Positions 15,614 to 47,975 of a stretch of DNA of 64,000 nt are shown in pieces (the first letter of the stretch is position 1; each line of letters opens with the position of its first letter). Below the pieces are notes generated by a model. It was not told where the DNA came from and ran no database searches. It saw only the letters and a list, made by a program, of their open reading frames with translations. This stretch comes from a virus. The stretch lies in the IMG/VR virus record IMGVR_UViG_3300003177_000005, positions 1 to 64,000 of that record. One strand, given 5' to 3'. A program made the position numbers and the translations under genes.

Positions 15614-15719
15614 TATCCATATATTATTTAAATAGTGACTGACATTACTATTAGTTGTCTTCTCTTAGAAAGATCCCGTAATCAGCAATGATTATCACAT
15701 TCTCATAATTTAAGGAGTT
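15614..15719 (+). promoter_or_regulatory. Early promoter plus structured 5' leader (copy 1)
   Basis: TATCCA-TATATTAT box; AATAGTGA-ctgaca-TTACTATT hairpin; GTTGTCT linker; GTAATCA-GCAA-TGATTAT hairpin; CATAATTTAAGGAG RBS. Confidence 0.7.
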
Positions 15720-16386: not shown

Positions 16387-16423
16387 TATCCATATATTAT
16401 TTAAATAGTGACTGATATCACTA
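16387..16423 (+). promoter_or_regulatory. Early promoter with 5' hairpin
   Basis: TATCCA-TATATTAT-TTAAA-TAGTGA-ctgata-TCACTA. Confidence 0.7.
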
Positions 16424-34592: not shown

Positions 34593-35797
34593 ACTTTGTC
34601 ATTGACCTTAAATAGAGATATATTGTTTATTATCGAAGAACTCTTTATACCTAAATTATGCTTCACCTCTTTAATCATCTTACTTTTTATTTTTTTTACA
34701 TTATCGTCTTTTATTTTACTATTTGTCCATATAAATTTAATGTTCTTTAATACATCTACTACATTATTATCTAAATCTGGTATTATACCTCTTTTTATTA
34801 ATATGTTATTATTAACTTCTATTATTTCTTTTAGGATACCATCATATCGTATTTTTTCTTTTAAGTAATTATCTGAAATCACTCTTAAATTTTTTTGTAA
34901 AAGATTAAAACGAGTCATAGGGAATATAGATTTTGTTAATTGTAAAGTTTGACTATTATATAAAACTGAATAATCACCAACCATTTGTTGTAAATTAATA
35001 AAATTCTGACGGTAGGCATTTTGAACTACACCTATTTTGTCACCATCCTCATACGAGTCAGTTATATCTGATGATGAGACTACATCACCTTTATTTTGTT
35101 CTATTTCCCTTAGTACTGATGTGTACTCTTTCATTAATGATGTTAATCTATTATATCCATCTGTTAATGCGTATAATATACCTTCTACATCACATTTATT
35201 AAATGCCTCTTTATGATGGTTATCCCCACCATTTCTCAATTTATCATTTATATAAAGTATTAAAGCATAATCATCGATAACTTCTTGCCAGTTACGAAAT
35301 TGTTTTAATTTAAAGTGCCCTGACATTTTATTTATAACTGTCTTATGAACATTTAATGGTAACTGATAATTCCCAAACCACTCACCAACTTTAGAAGAAA
35401 TAACCTTATATGCAAAAATTGAAAATAATTCTGTTTTAGCAGTATTAGTTATATGTTCTGAAAATTTCCTTTGACTATAATAAGCCATTAATCCAAATAA
35501 AACTACATTATAGACATTAGAACTAACCTTAAAATTTTTATTTACTTCTTTAAAATGATAAATATCTTCTTGTAGTTTATCTATATCTTTTATTTTCATA
35601 ATCTCGTTAAATAGAACTCTAAAATCTGTTACAGAGAACCTAGTTATAACAAGTCCTAAATATCTAGAAGATAACCACTCTATATGATCCTCATTTCTAT
35701 TAACCCAAGACATTCTAAATCGTCCTATATCTTTTAAAAGTTTTTCATCTATTTTTCTACCTATATGTTCTTCTAATAATTTAAACAATTTACACAT
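34583..35797 (-). CDS. Conserved phiKZ-like hypothetical protein (gp174-like)
   Basis: NRNEDHIEW...LGLVITRF, FKVSSNVYN and F.LKQ..NW motifs recalled from this family; probable start ATG 35797 after GGAAAGGG. Confidence 0.65.
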   Translation of the reverse strand: MCKLFKLLEEHIGRKIDEKLLKDIGRFRMSWVNRNEDHIEWLSSRYLGLVITRFSVTDFRVLFNEIMKIKDIDKLQEDIYHFKEVNKNFKVSSNVYNVVLFGLMAYYSQRKFSEHITNTAKTELFSIFAYKVISSKVGEWFGNYQLPLNVHKTVINKMSGHFKLKQFRNWQEVIDDYALILYINDKLRNGGDNHHKEAFNKCDVEGILYALTDGYNRLTSLMKEYTSVLREIEQNKGDVVSSSDITDSYEDGDKIGVVQNAYRQNFINLQQMVGDYSVLYNSQTLQLTKSIFPMTRFNLLQKNLRVISDNYLKEKIRYDGILKEIIEVNNNILIKRGIIPDLDNNVVDVLKNIKFIWTNSKIKDDNVKKIKSKMIKEVKHNLGIKSSSIINNISLFKVNDKVIR

Positions 35798-35950
35798 ATA
35801 AACCCTTTCCAGTTGTATCAATCAAGATGTATTTTTTCCATTAAATGAAGTCTAAACACTCTAATAACAAACAGAATTAAAAAAATATATACTAAAGGGT
35901 TTAGAATTTAATAAACTATAAAGTTTAGGCTTCATCATTTTTTTCTCCTG

Positions 35951-36003
35951 ATGAGTACTTCCCAGATACTACCGTATTTTGGTAGTATCTGGGAAGTACT
36001 CAT
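35951..36003. repeat. 23-bp perfect inverted repeat with 7-nt spacer
   Basis: ATGAGTACTTCCCAGATACTACC-gtatttt-GGTAGTATCTGGGAAGTACTCAT. Confidence 0.9.
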
Positions 36004-36056
36004 AACTATTTTAAAAATATATAATTTAAATGTCAAATATAAACAAGGAGTTTTTT

Positions 36057-36467
36057 ATGTGGTTATTTTTTTATGGTATAGTTATACTCGCTATAACTTT
36101 TTTATTAGGTGTTTTAAAACTTATTCCCGATAATGTTTTATTATTAATACTTGGTGGTGTTTTAAGTGTAGATTTATTTTTGTATCTATTTAAATTTAAA
36201 CATAAGATAGATATAAGGGTTTTCAATAATAAGAATTCTAAACTTATTAATAGTCCTGGATGGATAAAACATAATGCAATATTTACTTTAATAATTCTAG
36301 TTATTTCCGCTGGTTGTTATGACCTATTTATTTATAATAAAATTAATATTATACATTACTTTATTCTTTTATCTATAATAAGTATTTACTTTAATATTTA
36401 TTTAATAAACCAAAACAGGTTTGCAGCACTAAAACAGTTAAAGGATTTAACTAATGACAAAAAGTGA
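36057..36467 (+). CDS. Membrane protein (about 4 TM segments)
   Basis: AAGGAG RBS at 36045 favours ATG 36057; hydrophobic segments. Confidence 0.7.
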   Translation: MWLFFYGIVILAITFLLGVLKLIPDNVLLLILGGVLSVDLFLYLFKFKHKIDIRVFNNKNSKLINSPGWIKHNAIFTLIILVISAGCYDLFIYNKINIIHYFILLSIISIYFNIYLINQNRFAALKQLKDLTNDKK

Positions 36468-40170: not shown

Positions 40171-40220
40171 ATCCAACATATACCCTTATATAATTTAAGT
40201 AGTGATTAGTTATCGCTACT
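40171..40220 (+). promoter_or_regulatory. Early-type promoter with 5' hairpin upstream of PhuZ
   Basis: TATATAAT box then AAGTAGTGA-ttagtta-TCGCTACTT. Confidence 0.6.
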
Positions 40221-40251: not shown

Positions 40252-41328
40252 ATGTACAAAATTAAGGTTAACATCATAGGTTGTGGGGGAGCTGGTAGTA
40301 AACTAGTAGAGACATTCGCTAAATACTACGACTCTAAGTTAAAAAGTTTTGAGAGTGAAATCTCACCAATCGTTGTATTCAAGAAGTATGATTTAGATAC
40401 TAAAGAAGGAACTATCCCAACTACTGTTATTGAGTCGCCATTAAAGAATGGTCAAAAACTATATGGGTCTGGTGGTGAAAGAATTAGTAACTTCAAAGAG
40501 ATAAGAGATGCTGTTGCAAAGAATGCTAGTAAAATGGTTGAGGTTGAACCTACAACCATTAATATGGTAATATTTGGAACTGGTTCTGGTTCTGGAAGTG
40601 TTATTGGTCCAATAATTGCTGACCTAATAAAAAAGAGTGGTGGAACTGTTGTGGTTCTAGCTGTAGTAGATAGTTTTTCAAAGAAGAATACTATAGCTTC
40701 TATTGGAAGTCTTAAAACACTAGAAGGTTTAGCAGTTAAAAATAAATATGTTTTACCTGTTATGGCGTTTGAAAATATGCCAACAAAAGCCGAGTTGTTT
40801 ACAGTTAATAATATTGAAACTAATATAGAAAATGCTGATAACAAACTGTTAAGTAAGTTGTCTTTAATTTTACCATTCTTAACTAAACACGATGATTTAG
40901 AAGTTTCAGACTTATTATCACTGTTCAATCCTGAAAGAGGAAATAGTTTAAAAATTTCTAATGGAACAAAAAAATTAGATATAGCTTTAAATGGTGATTA
41001 CTATTTATCAGAAAATGTTGTTTCTGTTAAGTCTATAAGTCCTCTTGGTCATAACTATAGACCTAAGTTCCATAACCTATCTGACTTTAAAGTTGATAAG
41101 CCTAATAGTTATGCTAATGATATAATTAATCATTTCATTAGTAATACTAAAGACTCTAATGTTGCATTCCCATTAGAAATTATTTTAGCTGACCTTGGAT
41201 TTGGCGGCTTAGTTAGAACTCTGGAAGAAAAATTAGTAAACTTTAACGAAGCTGAACAAGCTCGTACAGATACTAATAATGCAATCGATATTGATTTAGA
41301 AGCAAGTGAAGATGGAATGTTTTTCTAA
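40252..41328 (+). CDS. phuZ: Phage tubulin PhuZ/TubZ
   Basis: GCGGAG, GSGG and GTGSGSGSVIGP tubulin signature; acidic C-terminal tail ending EDGMFF. Confidence 0.9.
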   Translation: MYKIKVNIIGCGGAGSKLVETFAKYYDSKLKSFESEISPIVVFKKYDLDTKEGTIPTTVIESPLKNGQKLYGSGGERISNFKEIRDAVAKNASKMVEVEPTTINMVIFGTGSGSGSVIGPIIADLIKKSGGTVVVLAVVDSFSKKNTIASIGSLKTLEGLAVKNKYVLPVMAFENMPTKAELFTVNNIETNIENADNKLLSKLSLILPFLTKHDDLEVSDLLSLFNPERGNSLKISNGTKKLDIALNGDYYLSENVVSVKSISPLGHNYRPKFHNLSDFKVDKPNSYANDIINHFISNTKDSNVAFPLEIILADLGFGGLVRTLEEKLVNFNEAEQARTDTNNAIDIDLEASEDGMFF

Positions 41329-41635
41329 ATCAGGTCAACAAAAGAAATGTAAGATGTTATTTTACGATGTGTTAGGTCCAAATGTTGGACCTGACATTAT
41401 CGAAAATAATATACTTTGTTTACTTAACGATGTTGATTTTTTTAATGTCTTAAAGAAGTCTTACATTGAAACGGATGCAATAGTTCATAACTTCATAGAA
41501 ACTGTAGTATCCATTATAATGGATACTTTTATAGCTAGGTTTACTAATGTGGATTTTAATTTTATAAACGTAAGAGTTAGTAAAAGAAGAAAATATATAT
41601 TAGTAGAAGTCTTTGCTTATTACATAGAGATTTAA
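41312..41635 (+). CDS. Hypothetical protein
   Basis: ORF overlapping the phuZ end; part of a tightly packed operon. Confidence 0.6.
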   Translation: MECFSKSGQQKKCKMLFYDVLGPNVGPDIIENNILCLLNDVDFFNVLKKSYIETDAIVHNFIETVVSIIMDTFIARFTNVDFNFINVRVSKRRKYILVEVFAYYIEI

Positions 41636-43307: not shown

Positions 43308-43762
43308 GTGATGTTAAAGATTTATCATTTTATAAGACTCCAACATTAGATGGTATATGTGAAGTTTTTAACGAACTAACATATAATTTGGTTAAACAGT
43401 ATAAAAGAGAAGGATTAAGTAAAGAGGAATATAACTTTGAATATTACAAAGTAATAGATTATAGTTTTTGGACTTTTATAATTAATCTGGTTTCTGATTA
43501 CATTATTACTAATGATATACAATATGAAAATATAATAACCGATAACTTAAGATATGTAGCCAACTTACCACAAGAAGCTATAAGAGACATACATATATTT
43601 CTTTATGATAATAGAGAAGTTATTGAAAAGAATGCTACTGACTATGCATATCAAGTATATAATTATATATCTGAAGAAGAGTATGGTATAGAAGAGATAT
43701 TTACATCTTCGGTTGATCCTAAGACTATATCAGTCACAGTTGTATACTTTCCTGTTAATTGA
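43304..43762 (+). CDS. Hypothetical protein
   Basis: ATGA-coupled ORF. Confidence 0.7.
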   Translation: MSDVKDLSFYKTPTLDGICEVFNELTYNLVKQYKREGLSKEEYNFEYYKVIDYSFWTFIINLVSDYIITNDIQYENIITDNLRYVANLPQEAIRDIHIFLYDNREVIEKNATDYAYQVYNYISEEEYGIEEIFTSSVDPKTISVTVVYFPVN

Positions 43763-43784
43763 TAATGAAAAAAAGGAAAAATTA

Positions 43785-44165
43785 ATGTATGAGAATTTAG
43801 AATTGGATAAAACATATTCTATTAATTTAAAACCTAATAGTATTTTGGGTAATGAATTTTTAGGGGCTGTTTATCAAGGTGCTGTATCTTTAAGTAGTAT
43901 AAAAAATAGTATTAACCCAAATATAGACTCTATTATATCAGCGTTAAAAGAGGTTGATAATATAGATACTGTAAGTAAAACATTCTTAACCTTTAGAGTT
44001 AATGATGAAACATTAGCAGTTAATGTGGACTGGGTTAGTTCTGTTGAGACTAGTGATGACTCTTTGATTTTAACTTTCAATAGTATAACAGCTGAAGAAA
44101 AAGAACTAATACTTTTACAGATAAAAGAATTAGGATTCTATGGCGATAGGTTAACAATAAACTGA
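43785..44165 (+). CDS. Conserved phiKZ-like hypothetical protein (gp049-like)
   Basis: YSINLKPNSILGNEF...DWV...L.ELGF pattern; located beside polB as in phiKZ-like phages; AAAGGA RBS before ATG 43785. Confidence 0.6.
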   Translation: MYENLELDKTYSINLKPNSILGNEFLGAVYQGAVSLSSIKNSINPNIDSIISALKEVDNIDTVSKTFLTFRVNDETLAVNVDWVSSVETSDDSLILTFNSITAEEKELILLQIKELGFYGDRLTIN

Positions 44166-44195
44166 TATAGTAGATGCTAAACATCTACTATATCA
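44165..44195. terminator. Bidirectional hairpin between convergent genes
   Basis: GATATAGTAGATG-ctaaa-CATCTACTATATC. Confidence 0.65.
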
Positions 44196-44596
44196 AGTTC
44201 TATATTTAAATCTATTTTTTTTCTTATGTTTTCGGTTAGTGTCTTTAAACTCATATTGTTAGTAAAACAGAACTTAACCATTTTTAATCTTTTAACATTG
44301 TAATTACTTACTAAACTATTTAAACCATCTAGTGCCGAGTTGATTAATCTATAATCACAATTATCTGTTTCTTTTCTTTTATATGGCATAAAAATAATTC
44401 TATTATTACTAGTCTCAAAATAAACTGGTCTACCTATATCTAATTCAAAGCTTGAAACCGATTGATTAAATTTATAAGCTAATTCTGGATCTTTTGAAAA
44501 AAGTTCTCTTAATAATTCGGTATTAGGAAAACCTTCCATATCTATTGGTAAAACATAAATGGTATTCTCTTCTTTTTTAAACATCGTTGCACCCAC
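44177..44596 (-). CDS. Degenerate macrodomain-like protein
   Basis: Layout resembles Poa1p/DarG macro folds (..IIFMPYKR...DYRLINSALDGL...KRLKMVKF) but the GxG loops are missing. Confidence 0.45.
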   Translation of the reverse strand: MGATMFKKEENTIYVLPIDMEGFPNTELLRELFSKDPELAYKFNQSVSSFELDIGRPVYFETSNNRIIFMPYKRKETDNCDYRLINSALDGLNSLVSNYNVKRLKMVKFCFTNNMSLKTLTENIRKKIDLNIELDIVDV

Positions 44597-44761
44597 TCCT
44601 TAAGATTTCAATAAATAGAAAAAATGAATGTATTAGGTTATTTACAATACTTTTTAAATTCTTCGAAATTGTCAATTAATCTTTCTATATTATACTCTTA
44701 ATCTACTAATAACTTATACATTTTAAAAAATCTTTTTTAGTCGCTAAAATCATCAAAAAAA

Positions 44762-44902
44762 CATACATATATTATTAATATAGTGAATGACATCACTATA
44801 GTTGTCTTACTCTTAAGTAAGATTAGTTATACTGTGAAGTATAACACCCTGTCTTATGGTGGATTCCATACACCTAAGACGTAACCTTATAAGGAGGGAA
44901 TT
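44762..44902 (+). promoter_or_regulatory. Early promoter plus structured 5' leader (copy 2)
   Basis: TATATTAT 44768; hairpins at 44779-44800, 44805-44822, 44826-44845 (GTGA loop) and 44851-44880; AAGGAGG RBS. Confidence 0.8.
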
Positions 44903-45121
44903 ATGGAATTAACTAAAATTGAGCTACATAAGCTCATAAAGGCTGGGGAACACCTAGCCATAAACCTATTAATAAATAGATACGGCTATGATGCTTTCGT
45001 AGCCAGATACGGTAGGGAGATTGCGGGTCACCGCATCTCCCTTCGTGATGTGGGAGCTGAAGTTTACGAAGCTCACCACATCACTAAAGAGGTGGTTATT
45101 GAGCCTGTAGAGGCTCAATAA
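44903..45121 (+). CDS. 72-aa hypothetical protein encoded in a highly structured, GC-enriched RNA
   Basis: Strong RBS and open frame; at least six stems inside the ORF. Confidence 0.6.
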   Translation: MELTKIELHKLIKAGEHLAINLLINRYGYDAFVARYGREIAGHRISLRDVGAEVYEAHHITKEVVIEPVEAQ

Positions 45122-45158
45122 CTATCCTCGCCGTATCTTATTAACTATTTATTTTTTT

Positions 45159-47297
45159 TTATTCCCTACCATACATTTCTTTTATGGATAGTTTGTTCTG
45201 TCTAAATATACCTAATGTCTCTAAAATCATATAGTAACCTGCCATAGTAGTATCTAGTAGTTTACTATAATCAACAAAATCTTTTAACTCATCTGGTATA
45301 CCTATACTTTCGGCATATGTCATCGGTACTCTAAATTGTTTTAATTCCTTTTTATTATTAGCTCTAAGGAAATTATCAAGTCTATCTAGAAATATACTAT
45401 TACCTTTACCTTCTTCTTTAAATGTTTTTATAGTACTACTACTAAACTTCACAGTTGGTATTGTAACTACTTTATATTCTGGTTCAGGGGCATTACCGTA
45501 TTTTTTACTAAAAACACCATTCCATAATAGATGTTGAAAATATGTTGAATTTTTGACACCCTCACTATAAGCTTTAGCAGGTTTTATAGAACTTACTCTT
45601 AAAAAGTTATAATCAGCTTTTTGTACACGCTCTATTAGATATTCTTCCATATCTATAACTTTATTAATAACCTTATTTATATCTAAACTACTCTCTTGTT
45701 CTATAGATGTCAAGATATATTTCATAAGGTCTTTTTGTCCTTCTTTAATCTTTTCTGGGAATGCTCCACCCAATAAAGTAGGACCTTTAATCTCAGGTTT
45801 ATAAGAATCAAAAACAAACCCTTCCTTAATGTTTACCTTAGCGTAATAGTTTTTAGAAGCATATATAGCCATTAAAGGCCAGTAATACTCATTTTTCATC
45901 TTAAGTAAATCTCTTTTATCTGGTTGGACATTCATATTGGTAGCTAATGTTTTTAGGTTATGATCAATAGCTTGCGTTACAAATGTCATAATAATAGCCG
46001 AAACAGCTGTTGCATCTTTGGTAAACTTGATATCACCAAAATACCATTGTACCCAATCTTGATAAGTTCCACAAGTTGAATCAGTATCAGATAGTACTAT
46101 GGCATCTCTTACCATAAGTTTAGTGTCAGCAACATTAGGTGGTAAGATAACTGTTCTAAAGAATGTATCTATTAATAATTCTTGTTCTTCAATTTTCTTA
46201 TAGATATGTAAAGCTGTTGTAGCCAATTTATCTAACAATACCATATCTTCTATAGCATCAAATTTAACATCTTTACCTTTTACATCTTCAGATACAATAT
46301 GGAATAGTAAGTTAATGATAAATTCAGGCATATCCTTTAATAGCTTAACTTTATCTTCTCTACTTCCTTCTATACCAGAAACTGGTTTTATCATATCAGT
46401 TACTAGGGTCTTTAAAAAGGTTGGGTTAAATTCTCTAATATTATAAAGGTTATTAACATAAGCAATCGCTGCTCTTTCTACTGGGGTTAATTTCTTTATA
46501 TACTTAAGTATCTCCCAATCTTTTTCTCTATTTTGCCAATATTGATGAGCAGGTTCTAATAGTGATTTTGCTAATTCTTGATAAGTTGGTATTCTAAGAA
46601 CCAATTTATCTAATGTATATTTAACTTTATCCATATCTATAAATGTTATTATAGAAGTTATATAATCCATAACTAACTCTGGAGTTCTGAATATATAATT
46701 AGATGCCACCATAACTTCTGTTAATGCATTACCTATACCTGCAACACAACGAGTAACTGATGTTAATCCATAGTGAGCTGATGCGTTATAAAGAACATTA
46801 AATACTGATGCGTATGCTCCTGATAATGAGTTGTTTAAAATCTTCTTACTATTTTGATAACCATTATAAAAGTCATATAGTTCCATTTTCTTTTCAGCAT
46901 AAAACTTCTTAGCCTTTTGTTTCGCATCGTTTCTTTCAGCAACGTTTTTAAATGTATATGTAGCGTCTATACCAGCTTCTTTATTAGACGCTATATAAAC
47001 AGTCATAGATGGTGCTAAGGCATTACCCTCTTCAGACGCCTTTCTTAAATAACCTAAAAAATTCCCTCTTTTCTTTACTTTATCTTTTACTTCATTTCTC
47101 TCATAATATTCTATCTCTGGGTCTCTAAAACCGTGATCTTTTAATGCTTTTCTAATAATATATTTAGCTTCTTCACCTACTATTTCATAGCGAACTTCTA
47201 AAAACTTTTTATACATCTTAATCATATTACCTAATAGATCCAGATGTCGCTTATATTCATTCGATGGTAGGATAAAAGGGTTATTAAATTTAGACAT
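45159..47297 (-). CDS. polB: Family B DNA polymerase (phiKZ gp050-like)
   Basis: QNSKKILNNSLSGA, LTSVTR, LSDTDST and KMKNEYY motifs. Confidence 0.88.
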   Translation of the reverse strand: MSKFNNPFILPSNEYKRHLDLLGNMIKMYKKFLEVRYEIVGEEAKYIIRKALKDHGFRDPEIEYYERNEVKDKVKKRGNFLGYLRKASEEGNALAPSMTVYIASNKEAGIDATYTFKNVAERNDAKQKAKKFYAEKKMELYDFYNGYQNSKKILNNSLSGAYASVFNVLYNASAHYGLTSVTRCVAGIGNALTEVMVASNYIFRTPELVMDYITSIITFIDMDKVKYTLDKLVLRIPTYQELAKSLLEPAHQYWQNREKDWEILKYIKKLTPVERAAIAYVNNLYNIREFNPTFLKTLVTDMIKPVSGIEGSREDKVKLLKDMPEFIINLLFHIVSEDVKGKDVKFDAIEDMVLLDKLATTALHIYKKIEEQELLIDTFFRTVILPPNVADTKLMVRDAIVLSDTDSTCGTYQDWVQWYFGDIKFTKDATAVSAIIMTFVTQAIDHNLKTLATNMNVQPDKRDLLKMKNEYYWPLMAIYASKNYYAKVNIKEGFVFDSYKPEIKGPTLLGGAFPEKIKEGQKDLMKYILTSIEQESSLDINKVINKVIDMEEYLIERVQKADYNFLRVSSIKPAKAYSEGVKNSTYFQHLLWNGVFSKKYGNAPEPEYKVVTIPTVKFSSSTIKTFKEEGKGNSIFLDRLDNFLRANNKKELKQFRVPMTYAESIGIPDELKDFVDYSKLLDTTMAGYYMILETLGIFRQNKLSIKEMYGRE

Positions 47298-47360: not shown

Positions 47361-47495
47361 TATCCATATATTATTAATATAGTGACTGACATCACTATAG
47401 CTGTCTCATTGTAGAGATTACTCTTATCGTGAGATAAGAGACTCTGTCTTATGGTGGATTCCATGCACCTAAGACATAATTTATAAGGAGTTATT
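47361..47495 (+). promoter_or_regulatory. Early promoter plus structured 5' leader (copy 3)
   Basis: TATCCA-TATATTAT; hairpins at 47378-47399, 47404-47417, 47421-47440 (GTGA loop) and 47445-47476; AAGGAG RBS. Confidence 0.8.
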
Positions 47496-47975
47496 ATGGT
47501 AAGATTTGAAGAAAAAAATTGGCAAGAGATTCTATGGATGCCTTCTTCGCCAATTGGTTTCGGAGAAGAAGGTGATAACACTATAAAGTTTTGTAATGTA
47601 GATGTGTTTCATTTACAAAAAAAAGACTTAGAGATAGGAGAGACTGTTATTTGTGACCTTAATGGTCACATAGTGACTATCACAAATAACAAAGAAGAGG
47701 GGTTTTTATATACCCTCTTCGTGGATGAGGTCTATAGAATAAAAGCTTATCTGGGTATAAATCTAGAGGACCTAATTTATGATGAAGTTATCCTAAAAAC
47801 GCACAAGGACATTGTGAATTTTAAAGTGGGTGACATTATTTCAAGAATAATAGGTGGTAGAAATGTTGTAGCCAATGAGTTTGATGGCGACACAGTTGAA
47901 TGGGGTGAAGAAGTATATTATGCCAAAGGCATAAAAATATATCTAAAAGAAGAGCCAAAAAAGGAGGTTAACTAG
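47496..47975 (+). CDS. Hypothetical protein behind the structured leader
   Basis: 159 aa; strong RBS; T-rich terminator after the stop. Confidence 0.75.
   Translation: MVRFEEKNWQEILWMPSSPIGFGEEGDNTIKFCNVDVFHLQKKDLEIGETVICDLNGHIVTITNNKEEGFLYTLFVDEVYRIKAYLGINLEDLIYDEVILKTHKDIVNFKVGDIISRIIGGRNVVANEFDGDTVEWGEEVYYAKGIKIYLKEEPKKEVN

Follow-up and report, generated by a model that had tools for sequence, protein, structure and literature searches.

Messages folded nearly from end to end, in which the structure gates ribosomes and nucleases, are known from the MS2 and Qbeta genomes and from the hok and Helicobacter AapA1 messages, and in S. aureus RNAIII/hld and E. coli SgrS/SgrT a small open reading frame (ORF) lies within a highly folded RNA with known base-pairing targets. 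Early units of the AR9 and phiKZ kind are transcribed by the injected virion RNA polymerase within minutes of infection, independently of protein synthesis. For the early genes of jumbo phages, the accessible text on AR9 gives the consensus promoter as AAATATATATTAT-(6N)-G+1 (PMC5312081), and that on phiKZ describes early promoters whose -10 box is extended and whose upstream sequence is rich in T, and 5′ untranslated regions (5′ UTRs) mostly of 31-40 nt (PMC8244752). Perfect inverted repeats of up to 284 bp lie within working coding genes of hairworm (Nematomorpha) mitochondria, for which the accessible part of the report proposes template switching between the arms (PMC6649704). Here we analyse a plus-strand cassette built around a 72-codon ORF (ORF72) in a window of 64 kb, the whole stretch of DNA under study, which is the first part of the 119,559-nt virus record IMGVR_UViG_3300003177_000005 (CheckV completeness 46%). 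Nowhere in the 119.6-kb record is over-folding stronger than in its putative message, at 44779-45142. On balance, we think that the locus is probably a self-contained early cassette, with a promoter of the virion-RNA-polymerase type, in a phiKZ/AR9-like (Chimalliviridae-type) jumbo phage, and that a real 72-codon gene here has hairpins acting in cis on its own message.

The 364 nt of the plus strand at 44779-45142 have a minimum free energy (MFE) of -161.4 kcal/mol, as against -88.1 ± 5.9 for 100 dinucleotide shuffles, none of which was as stable (z -12.4), and for the ORF part (44921-45142; -118.8 kcal/mol, z -14.5) none of 200 shuffles was as good. When the record was divided into 995 windows of 240 nt and folding energy was corrected by G+C regression, those over the finding took ranks 1 and 2; they did so again among 1194 windows folded at 65 C (-45.6 and -41.8, with a median of -4.7). 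The mean unpaired probability, 0.336, is lower than in all 39 control windows (0.469 ± 0.057), and G+C content is 0.43 across the folded stretch versus ~0.28 genome-wide. A preliminary description, made from the sequence alone, had listed the stems, and each of them stands at its place both in the sequence and in the MFE fold. Its impression that stems are far denser here than in neighbouring genes agrees with these ranks and with the position of ORF72 among other ORFs (below), and the comparison of folding energy with shuffles that it proposed came out strongly in favour of structure, for synonymous permutation (z -7.8, below) as for dinucleotide shuffling. The number of perfect stems turned out to be a poor proxy for folding, because bulges split helices.

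Within the ORF the fold consists of hairpins at 44920-44936, 44941-44959 and 44984-45004, a weak AU hairpin predicted at ~44966-44979, and a four-way junction of 134 nt (45005-45138) that appears in the MFE and centroid folds and spans codons 35-72 together with the stop codon. The arms of the junction (45014-45042, 45045-45084 and 45089-45129) are evident from the sequence and the MFE fold, and its closing helix (45005-45013/45130-45138) has pair probabilities of 0.87-1.0, as the preliminary description had anticipated when it drew the junction; in silico the junction persists up to 85 C. The plus-strand fold contains 129 pairs, only 6 of them G.U, and its helices are nearly all Watson-Crick. 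One G.U pair lies in the 44941-44959 stem (44945/44955) and one U.G pair in the 44984-45004 stem (44989/44999), both of which become C.A mismatches on the minus strand. Between the 5′ and 3′ ends there is only a 6-bp AU helix and no strong fold-back. The T-tract noticed earlier is present as nine T residues at 45152-45160, 13 nt past the closing helix, where it overlaps the stop codon of a convergent DNA polymerase gene. It had also been proposed that the 3′ end has two mutually exclusive partners and that the RNA might therefore be switchable. The sequence AGATACGG does occur twice, at 44978 and 45005, but the alternative pairing is not populated: the copy at 44978-44985 has a pair probability of 0.0, whereas pairing of the 3′ strand with the closer copy has one of ~1. 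Forcing the alternative costs +7.3 kcal/mol, and a riboswitch-like or hok-like switch was rejected on this energy. Searches for known structured RNAs gave no match at gathering score for Rfam 15 in the 64 kb (the best E values in 44500-45400, 2.4 and 7.9, are far below gathering) and no tRNA or tmRNA gene with ARAGORN, which did not call the four-way junction.

ORF72 (72 codons plus TAA, 44903-45121, plus strand) encodes a small protein of a two-member family and is a real protein-coding gene. The call is based on a full-length homologue, a confident structure model and a ribosome-binding site. A phmmer search of 1.84 billion representative proteins returned one relative, P0122 (74 aa, E 2.6e-4; encoded on a 5.4-kb ENA contig), which is 35% identical over the full length by BLASTP; the Smith-Waterman score of 117 compares with 24.7 ± 4.5 (maximum 51) and 25.6 ± 4.8 (maximum 52) for 2000 shuffles of either partner, a z of ~19-20. 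From the two-sequence alignment, AlphaFold2 gives an alpha/beta model in the order H-H-H-E-H-E with a mean pLDDT (predicted local distance difference test) of 85.6, and the product of this charged sequence is predicted to be a soluble alpha/beta protein. A type I toxin mRNA was rejected on that prediction, and no antisense unit was identified. Word-based and two-sequence-profile protein searches found only ORF72 and P0122, and no family or fold relative of ORF72 was found in Pfam, PHROGs, the ESM Atlas, by Foldseek against the PDB and BFVD, or by VIA-align (best Z 3.0). The search for homologues that the preliminary description suggested thus yielded one protein relative but none at the nucleic-acid level, either in Rfam or by blastn against 50,697 phage records. 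The JGI contig L011 covers P0122 from residue 7 onward; its copy of the gene is rich in A+T and has an ATGA overlap with the next ORF, like an ordinary operon gene; behind it, within 204-826, lie a 42-aa zinc-ribbon-like CxxC...CxxC ORF and an AAA_33 (polynucleotide-kinase-like) gene (E 2.3e-14), a sequence context hinting that the ORF72/P0122 family travels with nucleic-acid repair or kinase genes.

A natural point of comparison for the structure is the DNA of this homologue, which is AT-rich and folds with only -30.9 kcal/mol (z -1.5). Permutation of synonymous codons in ORF72, keeping the protein and the codon set, gave -67.4 ± 6.7 (n=150, best -85.8) versus -119.5 for the native sequence (z -7.8), so that losing the native placement of synonymous codons costs ~50 kcal/mol; permutation of codon order gave a z of -14.3. 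Because the homologous DNA is unfolded and much of the folding energy is lost on synonymous permutation, what we see is a coding gene on which a structure specific to this lineage has been superimposed. Its synonymous codons are chosen to suit the fold, and one sequence therefore serves two demands. Among 44 ORFs of 60-200 aa preceded by a Shine-Dalgarno sequence, ORF72 is the extreme (z -8.9, the next being -4.7). Its G+C content at the three codon positions is 0.60/0.30/0.41 versus 0.39/0.28/0.18 (standard deviations 0.05/0.06/0.04) in 85 long ORFs, and relative to P0122 it has gained alanine, arginine, histidine and valine at the expense of lysine, isoleucine and tyrosine. Pairing is spread evenly over the codon positions (46, 47 and 46 of 72), half of the codons (36/72) are fully paired, and two thirds of the message lie in near-perfect G+C-rich helices. 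In this lineage, folding has reshaped the codons and, to some extent, the protein sequence as well. Of the two natures that the preliminary description offered for the RNA, dual-function or non-coding, the tuning of codon choice to the fold sustains the sense of a double demand, whereas the non-coding option falls with the homologue, the confident model and the ribosome-binding site. Covariation was seen for the leader among paralogues only; in the ORF there are no compensatory pairs to count, because the sole homologue is without structure, and the four DNA runs containing the stretch show zero differences over 44766-45206 and hence no polymorphism in which compensation could be seen (one of them, X5, labelled hydrothermal vent metagenome, has short pieces only). 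No RNA run was listed among those containing the stretch.

A likeness exists to the hairworm genes, where both arms of the repeats are coding and protein function and stringent structure are kept together, as far as the accessible text goes (PMC6649704). Those genes are organellar and have no link to a promoter, in contrast to the many helices of 6-18 bp, the early cassettes, the sense bias and the G+C enrichment found here. In RNAIII/hld and SgrS/SgrT the ORF is a small part of the RNA, whereas in the present case it fills the folded part. Unlike MS2 and Qbeta, we are dealing with a gene of a DNA phage, and unlike hok and AapA1, the product is predicted not to be a short hydrophobic toxin.

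Upstream of the gene lies an early-type promoter, ATACATATATTAT-TAATAT (44763-44781, plus strand), with the core ATATATTAT at 44767-44775 followed by 6 nt; together with the next two residues, ATACATATATTAT-TAATAT-AG spans 44763-44783. By analogy with the AR9 and phiKZ promoters, the RNA would start at A44782 or G44783, and from such signals we infer the ends of the transcript. The view of the preliminary description that this is an early unit is thus in keeping with the promoter sequence, by which alone the cassette belongs to the AR9/phiKZ early units. Ten of the 12 best internal BLAST matches, all on the plus strand, correspond to ATCCATATATTATTWAAWTAGTGA-N5-7-TCACTA upstream of ORFs with ribosome-binding sites. 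They define a promoter family of 10 copies, ATATATTAT-N6-A/G, with a T-rich stretch upstream in most, at 15615, 16388, 40182, 44763, 47362, 56608, 60535 and 63874 in the window and at 70115 and 78528 of the genome, all on the plus strand and each followed by a conserved TAGTGA-N5-7-TCACTA hairpin. The hairpin is kept through G.U pairs in two copies and through an outer A-T to G-C change in the copy at 40182. The ORF behind this last promoter (~40250 onward, plus strand) starts with MYKIKVNIIGCGGAGSK, which by eye resembles a tubulin/PhuZ-type GTP-binding start. Among viral contigs, the exact 19-nt leader pattern had no match, and six loci with the 20-nt promoter pattern (L005-L010) were taken as chance because none has the downstream TCACTA arm.

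The 5′ leader is ~120 nt long (44782-44902) and contains four hairpins: H1 (44779/82-44800), H2 (44804-44823), H3 (44826-44845, with a GUGA loop) and H4 (44851-44880). H1, at 44779-44800, overlaps the putative promoter and start, and its RNA part would cover only ~44782-44797; if the start is placed as in AR9 and phiKZ, only the inner 5 bp would be RNA, exactly at the 5′ end. The four-hairpin leader is common to paralogous cassettes at 47362-47495 and at genome 70115-70249, with 79-81% identity for the copy at 47362. In a four-copy alignment that includes a shorter fourth copy, all 8 pairs of H3 keep pairing through two-sided changes in at least one copy, and the H4 loop is nearly identical between cassettes 1 and 2. 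The Shine-Dalgarno sequence AAGGAGGG (44891-44898, plus strand) places AAGGAGG 5-11 nt before the ATG at 44903; a Shine-Dalgarno core precedes 57 of the 85 long ORFs versus 5.6% of random positions. The AUG and first codons have an intermediate predicted accessibility (unpaired probability ~0.3-0.8).

The AR9 and phiKZ early units resemble the cassette in their AT-rich extended promoter, the core ATATATTAT, a start ~6 nt downstream, the T-rich upstream part and the shortness of the units, according to the accessible text (PMC5312081, PMC8244752), and the phiKZ-type polymerase of the present record is a further likeness to these phages, to which its ORF resembling a multisubunit RNA polymerase subunit (below) may add. 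A folded leader of 120 nt is unusual, because phiKZ 5′ UTRs are mostly 31-40 nt in the part of the report consulted. Hairpins or stem-loops are not mentioned in the searched text of either paper; unlike the units described there, every copy here starts with a conserved hairpin, three have the 120-nt leader, and the coding region is tiled. PeSL of T4-like phages is similarly a repeated early-promoter-plus-stem-loop module beside small variable genes, and a module of that kind could, by analogy, explain look-alike leaders on unrelated ORFs. As described in the accessible text, though, PeSL are short intergenic motifs with a proposed role in recombination and are not reported to fold the coding region (PMC4122927). 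In the literature we found no description of hairpin tiling of coding regions in DNA phages, the search covering papers outside paywalls.

ORF72 does not stand alone in its structure. Eleven of the 20 most over-folded of the 995 windows fall in three cassettes with the extended leader. Cassette 2 (47362-47975, plus strand) has the same promoter and four-hairpin leader, followed by a 159-codon ORF (47496-47975), and is also over-folded (z -6.65 over 483 nt; sense MFE -177.6 versus antisense -142.5; 26 versus 11 G.U pairs). Cassette 3, which lies outside the window (genome 70115-70850; 1485-2220 of locus L003), consists of the leader, ORFs of 84 and 88 aa tiled with hairpins, and a terminator of the form GAGGC-GUAA-GCCUC plus U-tract. 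In its MFE fold, ~17 nt at the 5′ end are paired with the last part of the second ORF; the sense strand is the more stable (-225 versus -185, with 28 versus 7 G.U pairs), and a gene on the same strand follows. Synonymous permutation gave z values of -2.4 to -3.5 for cassettes 2 and 3. To look beyond this genome, 35 loci of distant relatives were collected via the polymerase alignment and the strand antisense to the polymerase was scanned. The 9-mer ATATATTAT is unspecific in them (41 matches in the 35 loci), and real-looking cassettes are present in L034 and L029 only. That of L034 (5905-7100, minus strand) comprises a terminator, a T-run, TATATATTAT-N6-AG, a 75-nt leader, a Shine-Dalgarno sequence, a 370-aa helicase gene and a terminator, and converges on the polymerase operon. 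The helicase belongs to SF2, with a Suv3-type DEXQ domain, and no homologue of it was found in the present record or in the other 34 loci; its gene is tiled with perfect hairpins of 10-16 bp, and the cassette reaches -419 kcal/mol over 1051 nt, with synonymous z values of -3.3 to -9.4 in five of five segments. A Suv3-like RNA helicase is thus itself the product of a hairpin-packed message. In L029, the cassette is made up of the promoter, a 5′ hairpin of 16 bp, an ORF of 75 aa and a terminator.

In all five cassettes (three here, plus those of L034 and L029), folding is stronger by MFE on the sense strand, which also has more G.U pairs than the antisense strand when helices of at least 7 bp are counted (5/2, 9/7, 21/2, 22/15 and 4/2). 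The structure appears to be selected for more than coding requires, and throughout the class it favours the sense strand. The selected molecule would be the plus-strand mRNA, and its hairpins would act in cis as armour or control, in a role of message stability, shielding or regulation. A 5′-terminal stem and a compact 3′ end are the textbook protection against end-dependent and 3′ exonucleolytic decay, and where AU-rich single strand is buried, single-strand endonucleases and guide RNAs lose their sites. On this model the RNA would start with a terminal hairpin, and its 5′ stem and compact 3′ junction would shield it from end-dependent and exonucleolytic decay; with the AU-rich single strand buried, there would be fewer targets for single-strand-specific endonucleases and for guide-RNA pairing. 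The AUG region would remain moderately open although the Shine-Dalgarno sequence is mostly paired, and ribosomes may unwind the stems in passing. The outcome could be a long-lived early message, possibly a throttled one. A further step would be to see the tiling as an anti-defence adaptation of nucleus-forming jumbo phages, in which selected early cassettes, rebuilt even in their amino acids, would give double-stranded, armoured mRNAs that escape Cas13, type III systems and single-strand-specific defence RNases. With the DNA hidden, early messages would be the earliest phage nucleic acid to lie open to attack in the cytoplasm, and a Suv3-like helicase, as in the cassette of the relative, could help ribosomes to read armoured messages. 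We regard this extension as unlikely, if worth stating.

Several observations weigh against a cis-acting early message as we propose it. Three further genes behind this type of promoter (starts near 16388, 40182 and 63874) lie outside the 20 most over-folded windows, and dense structure is therefore no general need of early messages. Both the class of the promoter and the early timing are assigned by analogy with AR9 and phiKZ. The Shine-Dalgarno sequence, although in weak stems, is mostly paired (predicted unpaired probability ~0.1), and ORF helices of 12-18 bp should slow ribosomes, so that what we call armour may in fact be repression. A scan for terminator patterns found no canonical intrinsic terminator on the plus strand at 45005-45165; phage RNA polymerases may end transcription at other signals. 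The ORF72 family has two members only, and the library-wide E value (2.6e-4) is modest. For the ORF72 cassette alone the strand signal is weak (sense -161.4 versus antisense -142.8; 6 versus 4 G.U pairs), and the minus strand (z -11.1) and single-stranded DNA parameters (z -12.4) give strong folds as well, which is expected because the helices are nearly pure Watson-Crick; helices of this kind would also suit a role at the DNA level or on both strands. Thermophily, which would have offered another reason for the G+C-rich stems, was dropped because the IVYWREL value of 0.3995 corresponds to ~39 C.

To explain the structure differently, one could suppose that ORF72 is translated but that the junction or the whole RNA has a second role in trans: it would be the decoy, sponge or scaffold of a host or phage protein, for instance an RNase, a defence sensor or an RNA-binding protein associated with the phage nucleus. 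The junction is indeed an autonomous and extremely stable domain, amino acids bent toward GC-rich codons imply that structure matters at least as much as protein, and the near-identical H4 loop of cassettes 1 and 2 is what a protein-binding site might look like. Yet the helices are simple, almost perfect and capped by small loops, conserved internal loops, pseudoknots and Rfam relatives are lacking, the sole homologue is wholly without structure, and the whole 119.6-kb record contains no complement to three loop or junction motifs of 9-11 nt; in addition, the same tiling on unrelated ORFs, the helicase gene included, points to a generic rather than a specific role, and we consider a trans function rather unlikely. 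At the other end of the scale, a purely non-coding RNA, with the ORF as an accident of raised G+C, is hardly credible: the absence of Pfam, PHROG or fold relatives and a chance of ~5%, on a rough estimate, for an open frame of this length at this composition would allow it, but a full-length homologue of the same length that stands so far above shuffles, the confident AlphaFold2 model, and a ribosome-binding site and ATG at the end of the leader, an end that is conserved and in the paralogues is followed by real ORFs, speak for a gene.

Both remaining alternatives move the selected molecule away from the plus-strand message. Cassettes 1 and 2 lie antisense within a run of minus-strand genes (a 431-aa ORF, the polymerase and a 139-aa ORF), the polymerase gene stops 20 nt from the junction, and the cassette of L034 is likewise convergent with a polymerase operon. 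Given also the minus-strand z and a minus-strand terminator-like site at 44936-44920, the fold could be a 3′ trailer or terminator of the polymerase message, or self-folding of both strands that keeps early sense transcripts from annealing with later antisense ones into long double-stranded RNA. We find this quite improbable, since the sense strand folds better in five of five cassettes, cassette 3 is followed by a gene on the same strand, and a single bidirectional hairpin suffices at other convergent junctions. An example is the 14-16-bp hairpin at 44162-44196, which has the terminator pattern on both strands and lies between the convergent ORFs 43713-44165 (plus) and 44177-44596 (minus). 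It could also be that the sequence matters as DNA, forming hairpins or cruciforms, when single-stranded or supercoiled, at an origin, priming or recombination site, or that they are palindromes left by template switching with no RNA function. The near-pure Watson-Crick helices, the DNA fold, the adjacent polymerase gene and the precedent of perfect inverted repeats in working genes, as the accessible text reports it (PMC6649704), would fit. All 6 wobbles, however, are G.U on the plus strand and C.A on the other, the sense bias holds for the five cassettes, and the effect is tied to transcription units of one promoter type, with the translation start region spared; a DNA-level explanation thus appears very unlikely to us.

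As to the setting of the cassette, its convergent neighbour is a divergent family-B DNA polymerase gene (45159-47297, minus strand; PF20286, E 3e-161). With tblastn the polymerase matched 294 phage records, the best being Bacillus phage AgentSmith, PhiPA3 and 201phi2-1 (28-31% identity); the best named relatives are phiKZ-like and AR9-like jumbo phages, and protein relatives are encoded on contigs of up to 252 kb. A closer relative, P0001, has a polymerase 73% identical to this one and lies on a contig of 3.7 kb. Judged by this protein, the phage belongs among the phiKZ-like jumbo phages. An ORF at genome 92677-93087 resembles the beta′ subunit of multisubunit RNA polymerases (PF00623, E 1.9e-8), and PF00562 was not found in this 46%-complete record.

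A few other structured regions came to light. The windows 35761-36120 and 41281-41520 are also among the 20 most over-folded, and 35801-36100 folds alike on both strands at 65 C (~-25 kcal/mol). Outside the window, at genome ~72300-72820, there is an ORF-poor island with G+C up to 0.50 and a 14-bp helix with a UUCG loop; at 65 C its part 72501-72700 folds with -28.4 kcal/mol on the plus strand versus -11.3 on the other, and the island probably represents a structured RNA of its own. In the relatives L016 (2600-2900, minus strand) and L013 (~2700-2900), stretches with a G+C of 0.44-0.52 lie directly before the polymerase gene and fold well antisense to it. For L016, none of the three frames displayed on each strand contains a long ORF, and these G+C-rich stretches may be non-coding RNAs.

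Stringent structure over a coding sequence is costly and rare, and hairpin islands such as these resemble new non-coding RNAs yet are genes, which matters for annotation; for engineering, they are natural designs for very stable translatable mRNAs. ORF72 and P0122 form a natural before/after pair, the same small gene being plain in one phage and hairpin-packed in another, which shows that in a DNA phage structural selection can prevail over codon usage and even over the choice of amino acids. That unrelated early genes of uncultured phiKZ-like phages are tiled in the same way suggests a common pressure on early messages, for which message lifetime, translation control and escape from RNA-directed defence are the candidates.

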